Shown here: piece by piece, positions 7,179 through 14,375 of the stretch
Layout: each line of letters opens with the position of its first letter
Position numbering within the stretch: position 1 is the stretch's first letter
Source of the DNA: a virus
Lineage: Duplodnaviria > Heunggongvirae > Uroviricota > Caudoviricetes
Virus record (IMG/VR): IMGVR_UViG_2671180458_000004
Direction: 5' to 3' (one strand)
DNA: 21,008 nt
The notes under the pieces: model-generated
The model's database searches: none
Told to the model about the DNA's origin: nothing
What the model saw: the letters and a program-made list of their open reading frames with translations, nothing else
Translations under genes and position numbers: made by a program

Positions 7179-8833
7179 CCCCGATCAAATTCATGATATG
7201 CCTCATCGTCATCACGATAACCGCCCTCCATTGCCCGCGACCGTTCCGGCAGCGCCTGACAGGCTGATTCATCCAGGATGAAGCCCTCCATGTATGACGC
7301 CCGGTTTGCCATACAGAGCGCCACGGCAAAATCGCCATGGCGGCGGGCGTTCACAGCCGTTGCGTTCTGGTCCTTCGTGCGCCCCTTGTCGATTTGCGGG
7401 ATACCGTTCACCACCTTCACATGGCGCAAATCATCAAGCGTGGTCTGATGGCGGGCGATGAGGATATTCTGATCCTCAAACTCGGCCTTCAGTTTTGGCA
7501 TCCACTCGCCGTACCACTTCGGCGATAACATCACGCAGTCGATGATGTCCGGGCCAAAGGCCAGCAGCGCGGCTTCGGCCAGATAGCCGCCGTTACCGGT
7601 GGCGTCGAACGCCGCACCGACCAGCGCCGGAACGCGGGTCAGGATGTACATCATCACCTGCTCCTGCTGGGCATACGGCAGGTTGCGCAGCTCCACGCGA
7701 AACACCTCGCGTTTTGCCAGGGATTCAGTGATTTCCAGCAGCACAAAGCAGGAGAGGTCACCGGTGCGGGCAAAGTCTTCCCCGAAGCTGAAGCGGGAAC
7801 GGGAATTTAACGCCTCTAAAAGCGGTTTTAAATGTTCTTCACACCAGGTTAAAACCTCCGATTCACGCAGCCATGCGGCACGGCTGATGAAGTCGTCCGG
7901 GGCTTCAAACGTCAGAATCGGGATGTCGCGGATCATCGCCATTTCAATAAGTGCGTGAGGAATATAGGCACCGCCGGACTTTTTCGGGATACAGCCGTAT
8001 TCCTCGTCGGCATCCTCACGGGTCGGGGCGTTTTTGTAGAGATCATCACGCCACTTCTGCTCGCTTTCCGGTGACCATTCGCGGCCGGTGACATAACAGA
8101 TACGACGGTACAGCCCGTCCGCAATGGCATCATCCAGGGTAATGCGGTGGACGCTGTAATCCTTGCGCCCCTCGCGGGCTTCCTGAATGTACTGATTAAA
8201 CAGATTATCGACGCCGTTATGCGTGGAGATAATACGCACGCGCGCGCCCCACATGGTAAGCGCCATTGCCGCCTTGAGAAGTTCATCCAGTGACTCGTGG
8301 AACGCGGCTTCATCAATCACCACATCCCCCTGAAGGCCGCGCAGGTTTGACGGACGGGAAGACAGTGCCTGAATTTTGAATCCACTGTTCGGAAAGCGGA
8401 TCATGTAGGTCAGAATTTCTTCTTTTTTATCCCGATCCCAGAAGGTCTGCTCATACACATCAGCATCTGCCAGCTGGTTAAAGGCACGGGAGAACAGGGC
8501 GCAGGCAGAAATATATTCCAGCGCCATCTCCTGCTTTGACCCCACATAAAACACATTGCGGCCACCGCGCCGCTTCGGTTTTGCAGCGGTAATGACGTTA
8601 CGCCCGGCTTCCGCCCAGGTAAGCCCGGTACGGCGGGATTTTTCCGCGATGCAGACCTCGCTTTCATCCTCAAACCAGCGGGCCTGATAATCCAGAAACA
8701 CCGGCATATCACCGGGCAAATCAAGGCTGTCCGGCACATCCACGCCCAGCAGGGCTTTTTCACCGGCCAGATCAATTTTGCGGGTGGAGACGGTATTCGT
8801 CAGTAAGGGTGAGAGTTCTTCGGCGTTATTCAT
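7169..8833 (-). CDS. Terminase large subunit (Mu gp28-like)
   Basis: 554 aa; ATPase N-terminal half and nuclease-like C-terminal half recognised by recall of Mu-type terminases; directly upstream of portal. Confidence 0.9.
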   Translation of the reverse strand: MNNAEELSPLLTNTVSTRKIDLAGEKALLGVDVPDSLDLPGDMPVFLDYQARWFEDESEVCIAEKSRRTGLTWAEAGRNVITAAKPKRRGGRNVFYVGSKQEMALEYISACALFSRAFNQLADADVYEQTFWDRDKKEEILTYMIRFPNSGFKIQALSSRPSNLRGLQGDVVIDEAAFHESLDELLKAAMALTMWGARVRIISTHNGVDNLFNQYIQEAREGRKDYSVHRITLDDAIADGLYRRICYVTGREWSPESEQKWRDDLYKNAPTREDADEEYGCIPKKSGGAYIPHALIEMAMIRDIPILTFEAPDDFISRAAWLRESEVLTWCEEHLKPLLEALNSRSRFSFGEDFARTGDLSCFVLLEITESLAKREVFRVELRNLPYAQQEQVMMYILTRVPALVGAAFDATGNGGYLAEAALLAFGPDIIDCVMLSPKWYGEWMPKLKAEFEDQNILIARHQTTLDDLRHVKVVNGIPQIDKGRTKDQNATAVNARRHGDFAVALCMANRASYMEGFILDESACQALPERSRAMEGGYRDDDEAYHEFDRGCW

Positions 8834-9414
8834 CAGGCTTTACCCAACAGAATCCCCTTAATACGGGACTCAAGCTGTTCACTCATCCCGTCCACGCCGC
8901 GCAGCTCGTCGGTGACCGCGTTTGCCATCTCTTCAGCAAATGCGGCCCGGATTTCTTTTTCACGCTTAATGCTGCGCTCGGCGGCACTTTCCGCACGCTG
9001 TGCTGACAGGAGGATGTCTTTGATGAGGCGCATATCCACGTCGCTGTCGCTGTTCAGAGATTCGGTCGCGGCACGCAGGCGGCGGTACATCAGGGCGCGG
9101 GACATTTCCAGAATCAGCGCTGTGGTTTCACCGGTTGGCTTGTCCCCCAGTTCGGCCATCATGGCTTTTGTCTGCTCGCGTAAATCACGCAGGTTACGGG
9201 CAATCAGCTCATTACGGGAGGCTTCCCGGCTGATGGCCGCCGGTGAAAGCTGCTGCTCTTCCGGCAGGCCCGCCTCACGGATCAGACGGTTGATTTCCTC
9301 GCGGATCTGGACCTGCGTCAGACGTTTTTCACGCAGCATTTCCAGCAGCGGCTTACGGATGCTGTCGGGGAGCAAATCCACCTTGCGTACACGACCACGC
9401 GTCGGCTTGTCCAT
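8833..9414 (-). CDS. Terminase small subunit (Mu gp27-like, DUF3486-type)
   Basis: 193 aa, charged and helical; AAGGGGGT RBS; its stop overlaps the large-terminase start (ATGA). Confidence 0.75.
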   Translation of the reverse strand: MDKPTRGRVRKVDLLPDSIRKPLLEMLREKRLTQVQIREEINRLIREAGLPEEQQLSPAAISREASRNELIARNLRDLREQTKAMMAELGDKPTGETTALILEMSRALMYRRLRAATESLNSDSDVDMRLIKDILLSAQRAESAAERSIKREKEIRAAFAEEMANAVTDELRGVDGMSEQLESRIKGILLGKA

Positions 9415-9416
9415 CG

Positions 9417-9707
9417 TTACCCCCTTGCGCGTGGTTTCTTCACACCCGGAACGCAGGCCCGGCCTTCCGCCACATCCTGCCCCCGGCCGGTCAGCTCTGC
9501 GATGAAATAACCGTTAATCAGAACGCGTTTGCGCACCAGTCCCTGCTCGGCAAGCCAGGCAATGTGGGTGTGAACGGTGTCGCGGGACACGCGGTGGCCG
9601 TAATCATCCAGACAGTCCTGGAGCACGGATTCACCCAGTTCACCGTTGTAATCTGCCAGCGACCGCAGAATGACCAGACGCTGATCTTCAGTAATGAAAT
9701 CACTCAT
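9417..9707 (-). CDS. Mu gp26-like small protein (96 aa), possible winged-helix fold
   Basis: Position between the gp25-like gene and terminase; ATGA coupling at its start; assignment positional. Confidence 0.6.
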   Translation of the reverse strand: MSDFITEDQRLVILRSLADYNGELGESVLQDCLDDYGHRVSRDTVHTHIAWLAEQGLVRKRVLINGYFIAELTGRGQDVAEGRACVPGVKKPRARG

Positions 9708-10012
9708 TGCGTTTTTTTCCTTACAGCCTGCTCCAGCAGCAGTTCGTTCTGATAGGAGACAGAGCGGAGCGTGGCGTTCGTGGTTTTCAGTTCACCCCGC
9801 AGGGTCACGATTTCCACATTCAGACGGTTGACCTCGGCTTCTGTCGGCAGTGACGACAGGCGGGTTTCCACCTTCTCAACGCGGTCGGAGAGTTTTTCAA
9901 AGGCCTCGCGGGGGACAAACGTTTTGCGCATCAGCGCCATGAATATCCCGCCAGCGGTTGCCGTCGCCGAAAGGATCGGCACAACATAATCTTTAACGAT
10001 GCTGACCCACAT
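9704..10012 (-). CDS. Mu gp25-like membrane-tethered protein (DUF2730-like), candidate releasin
   Basis: 102 aa; N-terminal hydrophobic helix then a coiled-coil-like cytoplasmic part; sits where Mu gp25 lies; 20-nt overlap with the upstream gene. Confidence 0.6.
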   Translation of the reverse strand: MWVSIVKDYVVPILSATATAGGIFMALMRKTFVPREAFEKLSDRVEKVETRLSSLPTEAEVNRLNVEIVTLRGELKTTNATLRSVSYQNELLLEQAVRKKTQ

Positions 10013-10220
10013 GACGGGCCTCCATGATGTTCTGGCAGTTCACACAACGGATGGCATCCGGCACCGCAACAAGACGTGCGGCGGGGATCTCTCCGCCACA
10101 GTCTGCGCAGACACGTCTGCCCGGAGCATCCATTGCCCGGCGCTTACGTGTCAGCCGGTTACAAAGGGCGCGTTCTGATCCCCGCTCCATCACAGCCTGA
10201 GCACGATCTGAATCATCCAT
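9993..10220 (-). CDS. TraR/DksA-family C4 zinc-finger protein (Mu gp24 position)
   Basis: Four Cys as CxxC-x17-CxxC (CADCGGEIPAARLVAVPDAIRCVNC); start moved to the ATG at 10220 (AGGAAA RBS), giving about 75 aa. Confidence 0.8.
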   Translation of the reverse strand: MDDSDRAQAVMERGSERALCNRLTRKRRAMDAPGRRVCADCGGEIPAARLVAVPDAIRCVNCQNIMEARHVGQHR

Positions 10221-10230
10221 ACCTTTTTCC

Positions 10231-10602
10231 TTACTTCGTCTTTCCTGCCGGAACAGCAGGCGTTCCGGCCATATCAGTAAATTCATGTTGTCGCCGCGCC
10301 TCCAGACGACGAATACTGGCCTTGTCCACGTTGCAGTTCTTGATCACCGCCAGCAGTTGCAGGTTGTAAGTGACCGATGCCCCAAACGTGAACGGCTCCG
10401 GCGCAGGAGGGACCAGGCAGTCAGCCAGCCATTCAGCGGGGATCGGCACCGGCTTCACAGGCACGTATTTCACAGACGGCCCGGCGCACCCGGTCAGCCA
10501 CATCATCAGGAACAGGGACAGAGGCCGCAGGCACTGCTGCCAGCGACCGGCGGACAACGCTCTGCTGCTCCTCGCTGTGCTGAATGTTCTGTTGTTTTTC
10601 AT
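10231..10602 (-). CDS. o-spanin (Rz1-like outer-membrane lipoprotein), overlapping the i-spanin gene in another frame
   Basis: Lipobox L-T-G-C followed by a Pro-rich mature region with C-terminal cysteines; starts inside the i-spanin gene and runs past its stop. The ATG at 10602 (GAGG upstream) gives an unusually long pre-lipobox region; an in-frame TTG near 10557 is an alternative. Confidence 0.6.
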   Translation of the reverse strand: MKNNRTFSTARSSRALSAGRWQQCLRPLSLFLMMWLTGCAGPSVKYVPVKPVPIPAEWLADCLVPPAPEPFTFGASVTYNLQLLAVIKNCNVDKASIRRLEARRQHEFTDMAGTPAVPAGKTK

Positions 10603-10783
10603 TCGTGGCCGCCTCACTGATTTGTGAAATGAGTTGCAGGGTGTGCTGCTGATTTGCCAGCACCTGACGCGCCTCATCCCGCTCACGCACAAGCACCTGA
10701 TTATTGTCTTCAAGGCGCTGTGTCTTCTGGTGCATTCCCCATATCGCGGCAACCAGTACAGCGATAATCCCCAGCGCCGCCAT
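10433..10783 (-). CDS. i-spanin (Rz-like inner-membrane spanin subunit)
   Basis: N-terminal TM segment then a long coiled-coil-like periplasmic region. The listed ORF start at 10954 would overlap lys by 59 nt, so the ATG at 10783 is taken; a GTG near 10822 is an alternative. Confidence 0.6.
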   Translation of the reverse strand: MAALGIIAVLVAAIWGMHQKTQRLEDNNQVLVRERDEARQVLANQQHTLQLISQISEAATNEKQQNIQHSEEQQSVVRRSLAAVPAASVPVPDDVADRVRRAVCEIRACEAGADPR

Positions 10784-10895
10784 GCACGCCCCGGCAATCA
10801 GGGCCGGTAAGGCATTATTCACCGCAGCCACAGGACACCCCGTAACAGCAGTACCGCACACAGCAGCGCTATCATGAGCGGTCGCCAGAAGCGGT

Positions 10896-11396
10896 TCAGA
10901 CTTTCGGCAAGTCGTAGCGACATAACCATTCATCCGCCGAACGGCGGGCCTCAAGGCCGGGGAGTTTCACCCCCTTTGAATAAATCCAGCGGATATACTG
11001 CTTACAGGACGCGGGCATCTGCCCGGCATTGATCAGGCGCAGAAGCGTGGAGTTGCGGAAGTTCGTTTCACCGGCCCAGAAGATCCACGAAGCCAGCGCC
11101 ACCGTCTGACCACGGGTAAGCGGCACCTGAACACGCCGATCAATGGCCGCAAAGGCCCATTTCATGTCCTTTTCCAGCAGTTCCAGGCATTCTTCATCCG
11201 TCAGGGTCATACCCGGTTTCACATCCGGGCCGGTATGGCCGTAACAGATGGTGGGTGTACCGGTGGGATCGATATACGTGGAGTTTTCTTTCCCTTCCCA
11301 GTAACCGGTGTAATGCGTGGCAATCGTGAACGTCCCGGCACCGGCCAGAACAAGGGCAATCAGCTTTTTACGCAGTGGTGCGGGGAGTTTTGGCAT
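10896..11396 (-). CDS. lys: Endolysin, T4-lysozyme-like (GH24) with N-terminal signal-anchor-release domain
   Basis: 166 aa; basic N-terminus MPKLPAPLRKK followed by a Gly/Ala-rich weakly hydrophobic stretch; catalytic spacing E-x8-D-x5-T in YWEGKENSTYIDPTGTPT. Confidence 0.9.
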   Translation of the reverse strand: MPKLPAPLRKKLIALVLAGAGTFTIATHYTGYWEGKENSTYIDPTGTPTICYGHTGPDVKPGMTLTDEECLELLEKDMKWAFAAIDRRVQVPLTRGQTVALASWIFWAGETNFRNSTLLRLINAGQMPASCKQYIRWIYSKGVKLPGLEARRSADEWLCRYDLPKV

Positions 11397-11467
11397 TGTT
11401 ACGCTGTCTCATGATGTTCTCTGAGTCAGCGTAACGGTGAAGGAAAGGCGGCAGGCTTTGCGGAATA
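11397..11467 (-). promoter_or_regulatory. Candidate activator-dependent late promoter / 5' leader of lys, with a 9-bp inverted repeat
   Basis: 71-bp gap between the mor stop and lys ATG; perfect inverted repeat GTTACGCTG (11398-11406) / CAGCGTAAC (11427-11435), 20-bp spacer, left arm abutting the lys start; position analogous to Mu Plys. Confidence 0.4.
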
Positions 11468-11893
11468 TCAGAAAAGTGGCGGTTGCGTTCTTGCCAGATG
11501 CAGACGGCGCTGTTCGCGTATGACGGTATAAATCTGGGTTTCTGACATCCGGTAATGGCGGCGAAGGGATTCAATTTTCTCGCCCCGGTCCCAGCGCGAA
11601 AATATCTCATTGTTTCGCAGCTCGGCAAAGAGAGATTCCCCGACCGGCAGGTAATAACCCCGTCCGCCCATATAGGCTGCCTGAGCCGCAGCCACCTTGC
11701 GTGCCAGTTTACCGGCCAGTACCGGCTCAATCCCCTGACGCTGAAGTTCTGCGCCAGTGACTTCAACCAGTTCTGACAGGGTCCGCGGCCAGTTCTTTTT
11801 GAGAACATCATCAGGGATGTCATCAAGGCGGTCGATAAGGGCGTGCAGTTGCTCACTGTCACCACCAAACATGCTCATCTGAGTTTCTGCCAT
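11468..11893 (-). CDS. mor: Mor/C-family transcriptional activator (middle/late gene activator)
   Basis: 141 aa, the size of Mu Mor (129 aa) and C (140 aa); GGAGG about 6 nt upstream; located between gemA and lys. Confidence 0.85.
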   Translation of the reverse strand: MAETQMSMFGGDSEQLHALIDRLDDIPDDVLKKNWPRTLSELVEVTGAELQRQGIEPVLAGKLARKVAAAQAAYMGGRGYYLPVGESLFAELRNNEIFSRWDRGEKIESLRRHYRMSETQIYTVIREQRRLHLARTQPPLF

Positions 11894-11925
11894 ATCAGCC
11901 TCCGGTTCTCGCGTTCCCGGTAAGT

Positions 11926-11958
11926 TTAAAATAAAAATCCCGCGTTGTGGCGGGATTT
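11926..11958 (-). terminator. Rho-independent terminator/attenuator between gemA and mor
   Basis: Perfect 9-bp stem AAATCCCGC/GCGGGATTT (11935-11943 with 11950-11958) around a 6-nt loop; on the minus strand it is followed by TTTTATTTT; begins 4 nt after the gemA stop. Confidence 0.7.
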
Positions 11959-11962
11959 GGGG

Positions 11963-12472
11963 TTAACGGGGAAGTGATTTTTCATACTGCCTGCAAACGG
12001 CGTCATACCCCATCAGCGTGCGTTCGGGCATTCCCATCGCGGCCAGCATTTTGCGGCGGTGCCATCGCTTGAGACGCTCCAGCACATCTGAGGCCAGGGC
12101 GGGGTGTTGCTCCAGCCACTGCCAGTTTGCCACACCTTCGCCGCCGTTTTGCGCGGCCGTCTGCGATTTCACCCAGCGGTTAAGGGCGGTTTCCGCACCA
12201 TCAGAGATAAAGCCCTGCCGGTGCATCACCTTCCAGATGGCGCGAATTTTAGCGGTCACCGTACCCGGTTTTAAGGCCCGGTTAACCGGGTTCTGACGCA
12301 CTTTAAAACCGCGTTTTTTGAAAACATCCAGCACGCGGGACAACTCATCCGGTGACATATCCCGGCAGCTGGTTTTGCCGGTGGCTGCCAGCAGCACGAA
12401 TGTATAAGTCTCATCATCCAGGGCAAGCTCGCGCTTTGCCACATGAATGGCGGATATCAGTTTTCCTCTCAT
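11963..12472 (-). CDS. gemA: GemA-family protein (Mu gp16-like, DUF1018)
   Basis: 169 aa; N-terminal MRGKLISAIHVAKRELALDDETY pattern recalled as typical of Mu GemA homologs; sits just upstream of mor as in Mu. Confidence 0.8.
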   Translation of the reverse strand: MRGKLISAIHVAKRELALDDETYTFVLLAATGKTSCRDMSPDELSRVLDVFKKRGFKVRQNPVNRALKPGTVTAKIRAIWKVMHRQGFISDGAETALNRWVKSQTAAQNGGEGVANWQWLEQHPALASDVLERLKRWHRRKMLAAMGMPERTLMGYDAVCRQYEKSLPR

Positions 12473-12765
12473 ACCGTATTTACCTTTTTACGGACATGGA
12501 AAGCCTTTTCTGCCTCATCCCACCGGGCATGGTGTGTTGGCGGAATAATCATTATGTGCCAGCCATCTCTGGTTGTTATCCGGCAGAAAAATTCACCGCT
12601 ATATAACACAATGGCCTGCTGAATGAGCGCATCAGCCGCCCGTTCAACCGGATATCTTTTATCAAAAAAGCAGATGATTTTTCGACATAACCACCGGGTA
12701 ATAACAAATGCACCGAAAAAGGATGTGATATATAAGCACCAGAACAACAGAGAACTATTGTCCAT
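12469..12765 (-). CDS. Hypothetical protein with N-terminal transmembrane helix (98 aa)
   Basis: AAGGAGAAAG RBS; hydrophobic N-terminus LLFWCLYITSFFGAFVITRWL; ATGA coupling into gemA. Confidence 0.6.
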   Translation of the reverse strand: MDNSSLLFWCLYITSFFGAFVITRWLCRKIICFFDKRYPVERAADALIQQAIVLYSGEFFCRITTRDGWHIMIIPPTHHARWDEAEKAFHVRKKVNTV

Positions 12766-13969: not shown

Positions 13970-14193
13970 GATGCCATTTGCTCCTGTATTTTCTGGCGTA
14001 AGTTTTCAATTTCTGCCGCCATATAAAAACCAATTTTGCTCCAGACATCAGCATCATCACCATGTTCTTCCAGCTCCATTACCGCCATTAAACACGCATC
14101 CTGCCAGTCACTGCTGTTATCAGTTACCGCCACTGAAAATGATGTACTGTCATGTCTGTTAATTATGACGACTGGCTTTTCAATTTTTCTCAT
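13966..14193 (-). CDS. Hypothetical small acidic protein (75 aa)
   Basis: GGGAGG about 6 nt upstream; ATGA coupling to the next gene; rich in Asp/Glu. Confidence 0.6.
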   Translation of the reverse strand: MRKIEKPVVIINRHDSTSFSVAVTDNSSDWQDACLMAVMELEEHGDDADVWSKIGFYMAAEIENLRQKIQEQMAS

Positions 14194-14375
14194 TTATGCC
14201 TCCCGGAAATACGAATGTATATACCGATGAGAAAATCCATAATAAACAGGAAGAGCGACATCCTGATAAAGAACCAAATGTCAGGCATCATGGACAGGTT
14301 TCCTGTAATCGCAAATATAAAACCAATCCCCAACACCGGAACGATAATTGCGAAAAATATAAGTCGTTTAATCAT
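14190..14375 (-). CDS. Small predicted membrane protein (61 aa, two hydrophobic helices)
   Basis: Sequence is almost entirely two hydrophobic stretches separated by a short polar loop; ATGA overlap with the upstream stop. Confidence 0.6.
   Translation of the reverse strand: MIKRLIFFAIIVPVLGIGFIFAITGNLSMMPDIWFFIRMSLFLFIMDFLIGIYIRISGRHK

Follow-up and report, generated by a model that had tools for sequence, protein, structure and literature searches.

How a Mu-like prophage without a recognizable holin gene would release its endolysin is the question raised by the locus at 9704-11396 of the DNA analysed here, a stretch of 21,008 nucleotides (hereafter the window) that is a Mu-like E. coli prophage of the Sp18 type. 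An earlier note, made from the sequence alone, described this locus as a Mu-type, holin-less lysis cassette composed of a SAR endolysin, two overlapped spanins, a TraR-like zinc-finger protein and a releasin-like protein. The five ORFs were each checked on the sequence and were found where that note had placed them and in the same order, all on the minus strand. The cassette is a diverged copy of the published lysis system of Mu, and the sole new item in it is an unannotated gene for a small membrane peptide. The features of the region are the following.

9417..9707, minus strand: gp26-like winged-helix protein, encoded next in the late operon (63% identity with Mu gp26)
9704..10012, minus strand: DUF2730 protein, homologue of the Mu gp25 releasin (Pfam PF10805, E 7e-20, full length)
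9993..10220, minus strand: TraR/DksA-type C4 zinc-finger protein at the position of Mu gp24 (Pfam zf-dskA_traR)
10231..10602, minus strand: o-spanin, an Rz1/LysC-like outer-membrane lipoprotein, overlapped (Pfam LysC, E 6e-17)
10433..10831, minus strand: i-spanin (Rz/LysB-like), with an N-terminal membrane helix and a helical periplasmic domain (PHROG 214)
10819..10929, minus strand: unannotated 36-codon ORF for a small peptide with a C-terminal hydrophobic helix, MVMSLRLAESLNRFWRPLMIALLCAVLLLRGVLWLR
10896..11396, minus strand: GH24 muramidase endolysin with an N-terminal SAR-type domain (Pfam Phage_lysozyme PF00959, E 6e-37)
11397..11467, minus strand: intergenic region upstream of the endolysin gene, aligned with the Mu C-lys intergenic region
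11468..11893, minus strand: Mor/C-family transcription activator (Pfam Mor, E 3e-32)

The Mu-type assignment is borne out by family models for each component and by gene-for-gene synteny with Mu gp22-gp27. Syntenic homologues of Mu gp22, gp23, gp23.1, gp24 and gp25 were found at 27-42% identity, gp24 weakly, and the gp27 homologue of the cassette neighbourhood is 57% identical to Mu gp27. In common with the Mu gp22-gp25 cassette (PMC9239132), the locus has its gene order and overlaps, a SAR-type GH24 muramidase, an overlapped two-component spanin and a small protein with a C4 zinc finger; in both, the DUF2730 protein is of type I, its N-terminal helix being followed by a dibasic junction. As in Mu, the cassette follows a Mor/C-type activator gene and precedes gp26, gp27 and the terminase, with no recognizable holin. 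It lies at the head of the late operon, and the ATG of the gp26-like gene overlaps the stop codon of the DUF2730 gene (ATGA). In all 13 Mu-like loci compared, the endolysin and DUF2730 genes keep a tight synteny. A contig scan with a single endolysin as the query returned only one locus.

The endolysin is 39% identical to Mu gp22 over 165 residues. The catalytic signature E-x8-D-x5-T announced in the earlier note corresponds to E34, D43 and T49, which show no variation across an alignment with Mu gp22 among its sequences. The protein begins with MPKLPAPLRKK, followed by LIALVLAGAGTFTIATH. The predicted SAR helix, L12-H28, contains 9 Gly, Ala, Ser or Thr among its 17 residues, precedes the catalytic E34 and is weakly hydrophobic, with a mean Kyte-Doolittle value of 1.68 vs 2.70 for the i-spanin helix. 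Compared with that of Mu, this segment is less Gly-rich (2 Gly vs 5) and slightly more hydrophobic (1.68 vs 1.48). The best solved-structure matches are the SAR endolysin R21 of phage 21 (3HDE/3HDF; E 1e-24 for 3HDE) and DLP12 RrrD (4ZPU). The alignment with R21 spans the N-terminal domain, with PAPLRKK here facing PPSLRK in R21, and the catalytic triad. Composition, hydropathy and alignment agree with the proposed basic N-terminus and weak Gly/Ala-rich membrane segment, and the N-terminal domain aligns with those of Mu gp22 (PMC9239132) and R21 (PDB 3HDE), both proven by experiment to be SAR endolysins. At the level of its sequence, the N-terminus has the features of a SAR domain. The genetic context differs from that of lambdoid phages, in which the endolysin gene follows a pinholin gene; here it follows the gene of a transcription activator, and a DUF2730 gene is found downstream.

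In the N-terminal tail, basic residues are found at position 3 and at positions 9-11 (K3 and the tribasic R9-K10-K11, directly against the helix), whereas in Mu they occupy positions 6, 7 and 9. In Mu gp22, K6 and K7 confer dependence on gp25, and adding basic residues at the N-terminus keeps SAR domains locked in the membrane (PMC9239132). The Mu K6/K7 pair aligns with A6/P7 here, so that the determinant of dependence on the releasin has no basic counterpart at its own position, with R9-K10-K11 and K3 as possible equivalents.

With 35% identity to Mu gp25 (E 4e-17), the DUF2730 protein belongs to type I. Its gene is the fourth annotated gene downstream of the endolysin gene, or the fifth if the 36-codon ORF is counted. 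The membrane anchor on which the releasin-like assignment depended is present: a hydrophobic 19-mer, residues 10-28 with a mean Kyte-Doolittle value of 1.80, is followed by R29-K30 and by a 74-residue helical domain that we read as cytoplasmic. The same helix and RK junction have been described for Mu gp25 (PMC9239132). Mu and 11 relatives can be aligned with this protein over the helix, the junction M-R-(R/K)-(S/T)-F and a C-terminal motif, (H/Y)QxxLL. The C-terminal SHQ motif reads SYQ here, the otherwise invariant His being replaced by a Tyr, Y86, in this EHEC-type lineage.

The two-component spanin of the cassette is identified by matches to PHROG 214 and to LysC/PHROG 3001, by the lipobox and by the overlapping frames. 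The i-spanin matches PHROG 214 ‘Rz-like spanin’ (E 7e-33) and is 27% identical to Mu gp23. Its identity stands, but not a start at 10954; the most likely start is GTG 10831, which is an ATG at the same position in loci L007/L024 and is preceded by GGGGTG/GAGGTG. We discarded both 10954, the head of the long ORF, and the RefSeq start at 10861, since the frame upstream of 10831 behaves like non-coding sequence (14/10/6 over the three codon positions; pN/pS about 2.0). The o-spanin (PHROG 3001, E 8e-42; 42% identical to Mu gp23.1) has the lipobox L36-T37-G38-C39 and 11 Pro among its 85 mature residues. Its gene overlaps that of the i-spanin by 170 nt and extends 202 nt past it, so that the LTGC-bearing, Pro-rich, overlapping and overrunning o-spanin was correctly recognized. 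The start of its unusually long pre-lipobox region, which was said to need checking, holds up: ATG 10602 is exactly 38 residues ahead of the lipobox Cys39, GAGG is found 9 nt upstream, and 10 of the 13 sequences compared, from about 8 lineages, retain both this ATG and the basic n-region. The RefSeq start, 10473, was rejected because it lies 11 codons past the lipobox Cys. Thus, the RefSeq starts of both spanins are probably wrong in this lineage, the annotated o-spanin being devoid of a lipobox. As in P2 LysB/LysC and lambda Rz/Rz1, we found Pfam LysC and PHROG Rz-like matches, a lipobox, a Pro-rich mature o-spanin and Cys in both subunits, and the overlapped arrangement is that of P2 and Mu. 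In contrast with the P2 and lambda spanins, the o-spanin signal peptide is strongly basic and 38 residues long, a feature conserved in most relatives compared; that of Mu has 27-28 residues.

The zinc-finger protein belongs to the expected family (PF01258, zf-dskA_traR, E 8e-12; PHROG 54, E 9e-20, full length), and its likeness to Mu gp24 is weak (E 0.04). Only its start had to be amended, to ATG 10220, as its homologues begin with MD-x-(F/L/I)-DRA. A 97-aa TraR form starting from 10286, with ‘WPERL’ kept in three lineages, was set aside because most homologues start at MD-x-x-DRA with a good ribosome-binding site. This TraR-like protein probably targets the host RNA polymerase and not lysis.

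Upstream of the cassette, the activator shares 40% identity with Mu C and 27% with Mu Mor, and it is the sole Mor/C-family gene in the whole prophage. It probably turns the cassette on. The intergenic region that separates it from the endolysin gene aligns with the Mu C-lys region and those of seven relatives, with short invariant blocks in common, and no sigma-70 consensus promoter was found in 9300-12000. Judging from this alignment, it is probably an activator-dependent late promoter, equivalent to Plys of Mu.

We then consider the holin. Among the 37 window ORFs with a hydrophobic segment, none matched a holin family of Pfam or PHROGs, class I or II, in agreement with the claim that no canonical holin ORF is seen. 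As a positive control, related endolysins in non-Mu phages (L093/L094) are directly preceded by Phage_holin_2_4 genes. Here, the gene upstream of the endolysin gene is that of the Mor/C activator, and downstream are the 36-aa one-helix ORF, the spanins, the zinc finger and the DUF2730 genes. Small proteins with two or three helices and a charged C-terminus, as in a canonical holin-endolysin cassette, do not adjoin the endolysin. The sole small two-helix ORF (61 aa, 14190-14375) is located in the early region, 2.8 kb upstream, and is missing from a prophage with a 99.9% identical cassette. It is one of three uncharacterized membrane ORFs, with the 36-aa cassette ORF and a DUF1378 protein outside the window. 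Homologues of Mu gp18/19/20 were found neither in this prophage nor in its relatives. As a negative claim, ‘holin-less’ draws only on the lack of family matches and on the homology with Mu; as holins are diverse in sequence, the cassette can be called apparently holin-less.

The 36-codon ORF starts at ATG 10929 within the 3' end of the endolysin gene, with an alternative start at ATG 10923, and it runs into the i-spanin gene, the first codons of which overlap its stop. Its stretch 10832-10895 is free of overlap with either gene. Annotation was lacking in the three RefSeq records checked, and the list of an earlier reader omitted it. The peptide has a hydrophobic 19-residue stretch (Kyte-Doolittle 2.31) preceded by basic residues. 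An open frame with a conserved peptide was found in E. coli variants, in Citrobacter/Salmonella-type loci and in L029/30, L088-90 and L092, which amounts to about 8 diverged lineages with endolysin identities as low as 49%. Mu, L028, L033 and L091 have the same cassette but lack the ORF. Third-codon positions are the most variable in this frame (10/6/14 vs 14/10/6 in the i-spanin-upstream frame), with a pN/pS of 0.51 vs 0.82 and 2.03 in the others. The peptide matched no Pfam or PHROGs family; a single called homologue (P0058, 34 aa) was found among 1.84 billion representatives, and an exact look-up of eight peptide variants among 15 billion proteins gave no match. The 39-aa tail-anchored gp20 of Mu, encoded in the middle operon, has the same size and layout, a hydrophilic N-terminal half and a C-terminal hydrophobic helix, but no detectable sequence similarity and a different location. 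For Mu gp20, a role as a holin has been disproved (PMC9239132). The 36-aa peptide is neither a class I nor a class II holin.

Other explanations for this ORF were examined. That it is the 5' stub of an older i-spanin gene found no support, as the HMM of the ORF family matches no i-spanin; by eye only, its helix loosely resembles the N-terminus of Mu gp23. A conserved RNA structure would hardly account for the conservation of 10800-10929, given the weak consensus fold (-13.6 kcal/mol, covariation term -1.7). Similarly, an antisense ORF at 10704-10877 on the plus strand was dismissed as a gene because its third-codon positions are the least variable sites.

Based on these analyses, we consider it likely that the cassette works as published for Mu, with the activator, SAR, releasin and no-holin steps transposed by homology. 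A single Mor/C-family activator would turn on the promoter upstream of the endolysin gene. The SAR domain would export the muramidase, which would accumulate as an inactive enzyme tethered to the inner membrane and held there by the K3/R9-K10-K11 basic cluster. The DUF2730 protein, with an N-out/C-in topology, tethered to the membrane and cytoplasmic, would act as a releasin that promotes SAR exit, after which the endolysin would refold and degrade the cell wall. The i-spanin/o-spanin pair would then disrupt the outer membrane. Lysis would be timed without a holin. Because Mu K6/K7 are not conserved in position, the releasin step is one that we infer here. The K6/K7 shift, the 2-Gly SAR segment, the SYQ motif, the extra membrane peptide and the occurrence of DUF2730 proteins beside non-SAR endolysins count against a Mu-like working.

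Some of these points would fit a model in which the endolysin exits the membrane unaided, as R21 does at a low rate, timing being set by endolysin accumulation only and the DUF2730 protein having another late job. In addition to the displaced K6/K7 determinant, the N-terminus is as near to that of R21 (PPSLRK) as to that of Mu, the invariant His has become Tyr in this lineage, and DUF2730 proteins are also found beside non-SAR endolysins (PMC9239132), so that the role of the family may exceed SAR release. Nevertheless, we regard unaided exit as unlikely: the tail ahead of the helix carries four basic residues, a higher number than in Mu or R21, and added N-terminal basic residues lock SAR domains (PMC9239132). 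Furthermore, the endolysin and DUF2730 genes have stayed together in all the Mu-like loci compared, and gp25 also helps unrelated SAR endolysins to leave the membrane (PMC9239132). It is slightly less likely still that the 36-aa peptide sets or tunes endolysin release, as a minimal pinholin-like or depolarizing peptide or as a regulator of the SAR anchor, the role of DUF2730 being optional. Membrane depolarization releases SAR endolysins, and the peptide has a strongly hydrophobic stretch with a basic N-terminal flank. Its ORF lies between the endolysin and spanin genes and is translationally linked to both, and its conservation across lineages, the codon-position pattern and pN/pS favour the frame. 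However, selection on this frame is only moderate (pN/pS about 0.5), and part of the conserved C-terminus of the peptide, L-R-G-V-L-W-L, is encoded where the i-spanin gene has its ribosome-binding site and start codon, so that the conservation of this part may not reflect selection on the peptide. To our knowledge, 36 aa and one helix are below the size of any known holin, and there is no holin family match. Mu and several relatives do without it despite having the same cassette, and depolarization delays lysis in Mu (PMC9239132).

Lastly, it is very improbable that the cassette is an inactive remnant of a defective prophage. Broken versions do occur in some assemblies, namely a 1-nt deletion fusing the endolysin to the small ORF (L022) and an endolysin/o-spanin deletion fusion (P0005). 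Nevertheless, the window ORFs are all intact, with the catalytic and lipobox residues retained, and the cassette is 95-100% identical across >200 genomes. The Mu-type gene set of the whole prophage is complete, and Sp18 was assessed as intact, lysis function included (PMC2669165).

If, as we favour, the cassette works as in Mu, this lineage offers a natural, diverged endolysin/releasin pair (35-39% identity) for a pathway demonstrated for Mu alone, only two papers of the literature searched mentioning DUF2730. The rearranged basic tail and the His-to-Tyr replacement could help to test releasin mechanisms, charge neutralization vs protease; a functional Tyr variant would hardly fit a catalytic role for the His, and the tail could show which basic residues lock the SAR domain in the membrane. 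The 36-codon ORF is a cheap, testable candidate for an extra lysis component. If its peptide does time lysis, one Mu-like branch would have a three-part control of its SAR endolysin, by anchor, releasin and micro-peptide, and would not be triggerless. Sp18-type prophages were found in 231 of 5426 complete E. coli genomes. Pathogenic E. coli commonly carry such a Mu-like prophage, and the lineage is widespread among Shiga-toxin-producing E. coli.

The window is Mu-like prophage DNA, read here along the minus strand: from high to low coordinates, its ORFs code for transposase A/B, GemA and a Mor/C-family activator, followed by terminase, portal and head proteins. The segment 9400-11900 was found in 231 of the 5426 complete Escherichia coli genomes, with 99.9% identity to a prophage that E. 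coli 61_150228 carries in rihA and 99.1% to E. coli O157:H7 strain RV06. This is the Sp18-type Mu-like prophage, copies of which are also inserted within Stx phages. Sp18 of O157 Sakai was judged to be intact, with lysis function present (PMC2669165). DNA-level similarity to phage Mu is limited to the gp26 gene, and the gene order of the cassette region is identical to that of Mu. Family-model matches and synteny with Mu revealed all the lysis genes that the earlier note had named.

Lysis cassette and downstream genes, with their Mu counterparts
10896-11396, minus strand: endolysin; Pfam Phage_lysozyme (E 6e-37); 39% identity to Mu gp22
10433-10831, minus strand: i-spanin; PHROG 214, Rz-like spanin (E 7e-33); 27% identity to Mu gp23
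10231-10602, minus strand: o-spanin; Pfam LysC (E 6e-17), PHROG 3001 (E 8e-42); 42% to Mu gp23.1
9993-10220, minus strand: zinc-finger protein; Pfam zf-dskA_traR (E 8e-12), PHROG 54 (E 9e-20); weak match to Mu gp24 (E 0.04)
9704-10012, minus strand: gp25-like protein; Pfam DUF2730, full length (E 7e-20); 35% to Mu gp25 (E 4e-17)
9417-9707, minus strand: gp26-like protein; 63% identity to Mu gp26
8833-9414, minus strand: gp27-like protein; Pfam Phage_Mu_Gp27 (E 2e-33); 57% identity to Mu gp27

The prophage lineage is thus a diverged, unstudied member of the Mu kind of lysis system. The catalogued active phages with a SAR-muramidase/type I DUF2730 pair all belong to the genus Muvirus, and ~1000 DUF2730 proteins have been located in presumed transposable prophages (PMC9239132).

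The E-x8-D-x5-T signature read earlier in the endolysin corresponds to E34, D43 and T49, which are invariant in the alignment, Mu gp22 included. The N-terminus, MPKLPAPLRKK, precedes LIALVLAGAGTFTIATH, in which 9 of the 17 residues are Gly, Ala, Ser or Thr. This segment has a mean Kyte-Doolittle value of 1.68, above that of the Mu gp22 SAR segment (1.48) and below that of the i-spanin helix (2.70). Composition and hydropathy thus agree with the proposed basic N-terminus and weak Gly/Ala-rich membrane segment. The best solved relatives are the phage 21 SAR endolysin R21 (3HDE, E 1e-24) and RrrD, and the R21 alignment extends through the N-terminal domain (PAPLRKK... versus PPSLRK...). As the R21 and Mu gp22 alignments both cover this domain, it is homologous to two domains whose SAR nature has been proven experimentally.

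The gp25-like protein had been described as membrane-tethered, and it does harbour a hydrophobic N-terminal 19-mer (residues 10-28). The following R29-K30 agrees with the twin-basic junction of Mu gp25 (PMC9239132). In the C-terminal S-H-Q-x-E-L-L-L-E motif of DUF2730 proteins, the His is fully conserved across Mu and ten further full-length lineages, whereas a Tyr (Y86, codon 9755-9757) replaces it in the window and all the 99%-identical EHEC-type copies. A protease model has been raised for gp25 (PMC9239132); the Tyr variant, if functional, would be an argument against it.

The prophage has a single Mor/C-family gene (11468-11893, minus strand), whose product resembles Mu C (40% identity) more than Mor (27%). 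Unlike Mu, this prophage has neither the two-step Mor-then-C cascade nor genes 18-20. Between the GemA and Mor/C-family genes lies a strong terminator-like hairpin with a T-run (11935-11958, minus strand). The region 11397-11467 aligns with Mu Plys, and no sigma-70 consensus was found in it.

Homology to Mu, whose lysis system has been dissected experimentally (PMC9239132), suggests the most likely course of lysis. The activator would switch on a promoter in 11397-11467. The endolysin would be exported, and its SAR domain and basic tail would hold it in the inner membrane in an inactive state. The DUF2730 protein would then promote its release, the cell wall would be degraded, and the spanins would disrupt the outer membrane. 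The analysis established what the parts are, their anatomy and their synteny; SAR behaviour, releasin dependence and lack of holin control are predicted from homology. This prediction is weakened because Mu gp22 K6/K7, which create gp25 dependence (PMC9239132), align here with A6/P7, the basic residues being at positions 3 and 9-11; because the SAR segment has two Gly residues, compared with five in Mu; and because the EHEC-type lineage has Tyr instead of the SHQ His.

The earlier note saw no canonical holin ORF, and our two-strand screen of the 37 ORFs that are 25-250 aa long and contain a hydrophobic 17-mer gave the same result, with no match to Pfam or PHROGs holin families. As a positive control, two loci of non-Mu phages, L093 (2235-3013) and L094 (2277-3010), whose endolysins are 46-48% identical to that of the window, harbour a Phage_holin_2_4 gene immediately 5' of the endolysin gene, with overlapping stop and start. 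Thus, the same endolysin family is paired with a holin elsewhere; the upstream neighbour in the window is the Mor/C activator gene. On the coding strand, besides the spanins, the DUF2730 protein and the endolysin, three ORFs with hydrophobic segments are not nested in larger genes.

Additional ORFs with hydrophobic segments
10819-10929, minus strand: 36-codon ORF within the cassette, in the third frame; encodes MVMSLRLAESLNRFWRPLMIALLCAVLLLRGVLWLR
12469-12765, minus strand: 98-aa protein with one N-terminal helix, in the early operon immediately upstream of GemA; PHROG 17269 (E 2e-33), function not assigned
14190-14375, minus strand: 61-aa ORF with two helices, in the early region; weak match to PHROG 19804

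In its layout, with a pair of strongly hydrophobic helices and a basic C-terminus, the 61-aa product recalls class II holins. We rejected it as part of the lysis machinery: the ORF is located 2.8 kb upstream, ahead of the early terminator, and belongs to a ~400-bp segment missing from 61_150228, whose cassette is 99.9% identical. The full 451-nt query of this segment matched only three genomes. Outside the window, the full prophage in NZ_AP026099.1 has DUF1378 and DUF826 genes (L004, 39085-39548) in the accessory region at its right end, which lies between the invertase gene and com; the DUF1378 protein is 60 aa long, with one membrane helix. Members of these two families are usually part of the lysis region in lambdoid Stx phages. 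Altogether, no canonical holin is recognisable, although its absence cannot be proven from sequence alone.

The 36-codon ORF begins within the final 11 codons of the endolysin gene, and its TGA overlaps the fourth i-spanin codon. It is open, with a recognisably conserved peptide, in all E. coli variants, Citrobacter/Salmonella-type loci (VVMPLRLTAVLVHYWRPVMVSVLCVVLLLRGVLWLA), L092, L088-L090 and L029/L030 (endolysin 49% identical), and its length varies by whole codons only (36 or 37). In the part overlapping no other gene, variable sites by codon position are 10/6/14, with most at third positions, and pairwise codon differences are 207 synonymous and 305 nonsynonymous. pN/pS is 0.51 in this frame, compared with 0.82 and 2.03 in the other two, and the consensus RNA fold is weak. 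Nevertheless, the conserved L-R-G-V-L-W-L codons double as the i-spanin ribosome-binding site and start codon, so this part may be conserved for reasons other than selection on the peptide. The ORF is not present in Mu, L033 and L091, where the i-spanin start directly overlaps the endolysin stop, or in L028, where the endolysin ORF extends over the i-spanin 5' end. The peptide has no match in Pfam or PHROGs, its exact sequence was not found among 15 billion predicted proteins, and one called homologue (34 aa) was detected among 1.84 billion cluster representatives. Its size and layout are similar to those of Mu gp20, a tail-anchored protein of 39 aa that is not a holin in Mu (PMC9239132). On balance, it is rather likely that the ORF is a translated gene under selection. 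It would be the sole new element of the cassette, with moderate, comparative support.

The spanins are overlapped as in Mu and P2, in keeping with the initial reading: they share 170 nt, and the o-spanin gene continues 202 nt past that of the i-spanin. The L-T-G-C lipobox has Cys39 with Ala at +2, and 11 of the 85 mature residues are Pro. The o-spanin start, flagged earlier for checking, is assigned to ATG 10602, preceded by GAGG at 9 nt. In 10 of the 13 sequences compared (window, L005, L007, L025, L028, L029, L088, L090, L091 and L092; ~8 lineages, endolysin identity down to 49%), the lipobox Cys is preceded by an ATG at a distance of exactly 38 residues; in L033, the closest ATG is 39 residues away. 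All of these share a strongly basic n-region, with AGG/GAGG upstream. The long signal peptide (38 residues, compared with 27-28 in Mu) is thus a conserved trait of the group; TTG 10557 may be an alternative start. The RefSeq/PGAP o-spanin start at 10473 (CDS 10231-10473; L002/L003) cannot be right, as it lies 11 codons past the lipobox Cys. For the i-spanin, the same records start at GTG 10861 (CDS 10433-10861), 30 nt too early and across the 36-codon ORF. From the endolysin stop to 10831, the i-spanin frame has variable sites of 14/10/6 by codon position, 47 synonymous and 508 nonsynonymous pairwise codon differences, and a pN/pS of 2.0, the pattern expected of non-coding sequence. At the position of GTG 10831, Citrobacter-type loci have an ATG, and the start codon is preceded by GGGGTG or GAGGTG. 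Both RefSeq spanin annotations in this lineage are therefore probably wrong.

The zinc-finger protein starts at ATG 10220 (MDDSDRA...), like its homologues. The window, L007 and L029 share a conserved, open upstream extension of its frame (10221-10286, minus strand; MNLLIWPERL...), in which the L007 changes are synonymous. This extension overlaps the 3' end of the o-spanin gene and is absent from most other lineages. Lastly, public assemblies contain two broken endolysin variants: in L022 (2989-3576), a 1-nt deletion joins the endolysin to the last part of the 36-codon ORF, and in protein P0005, a deletion joins it to the C-terminal half of the o-spanin.
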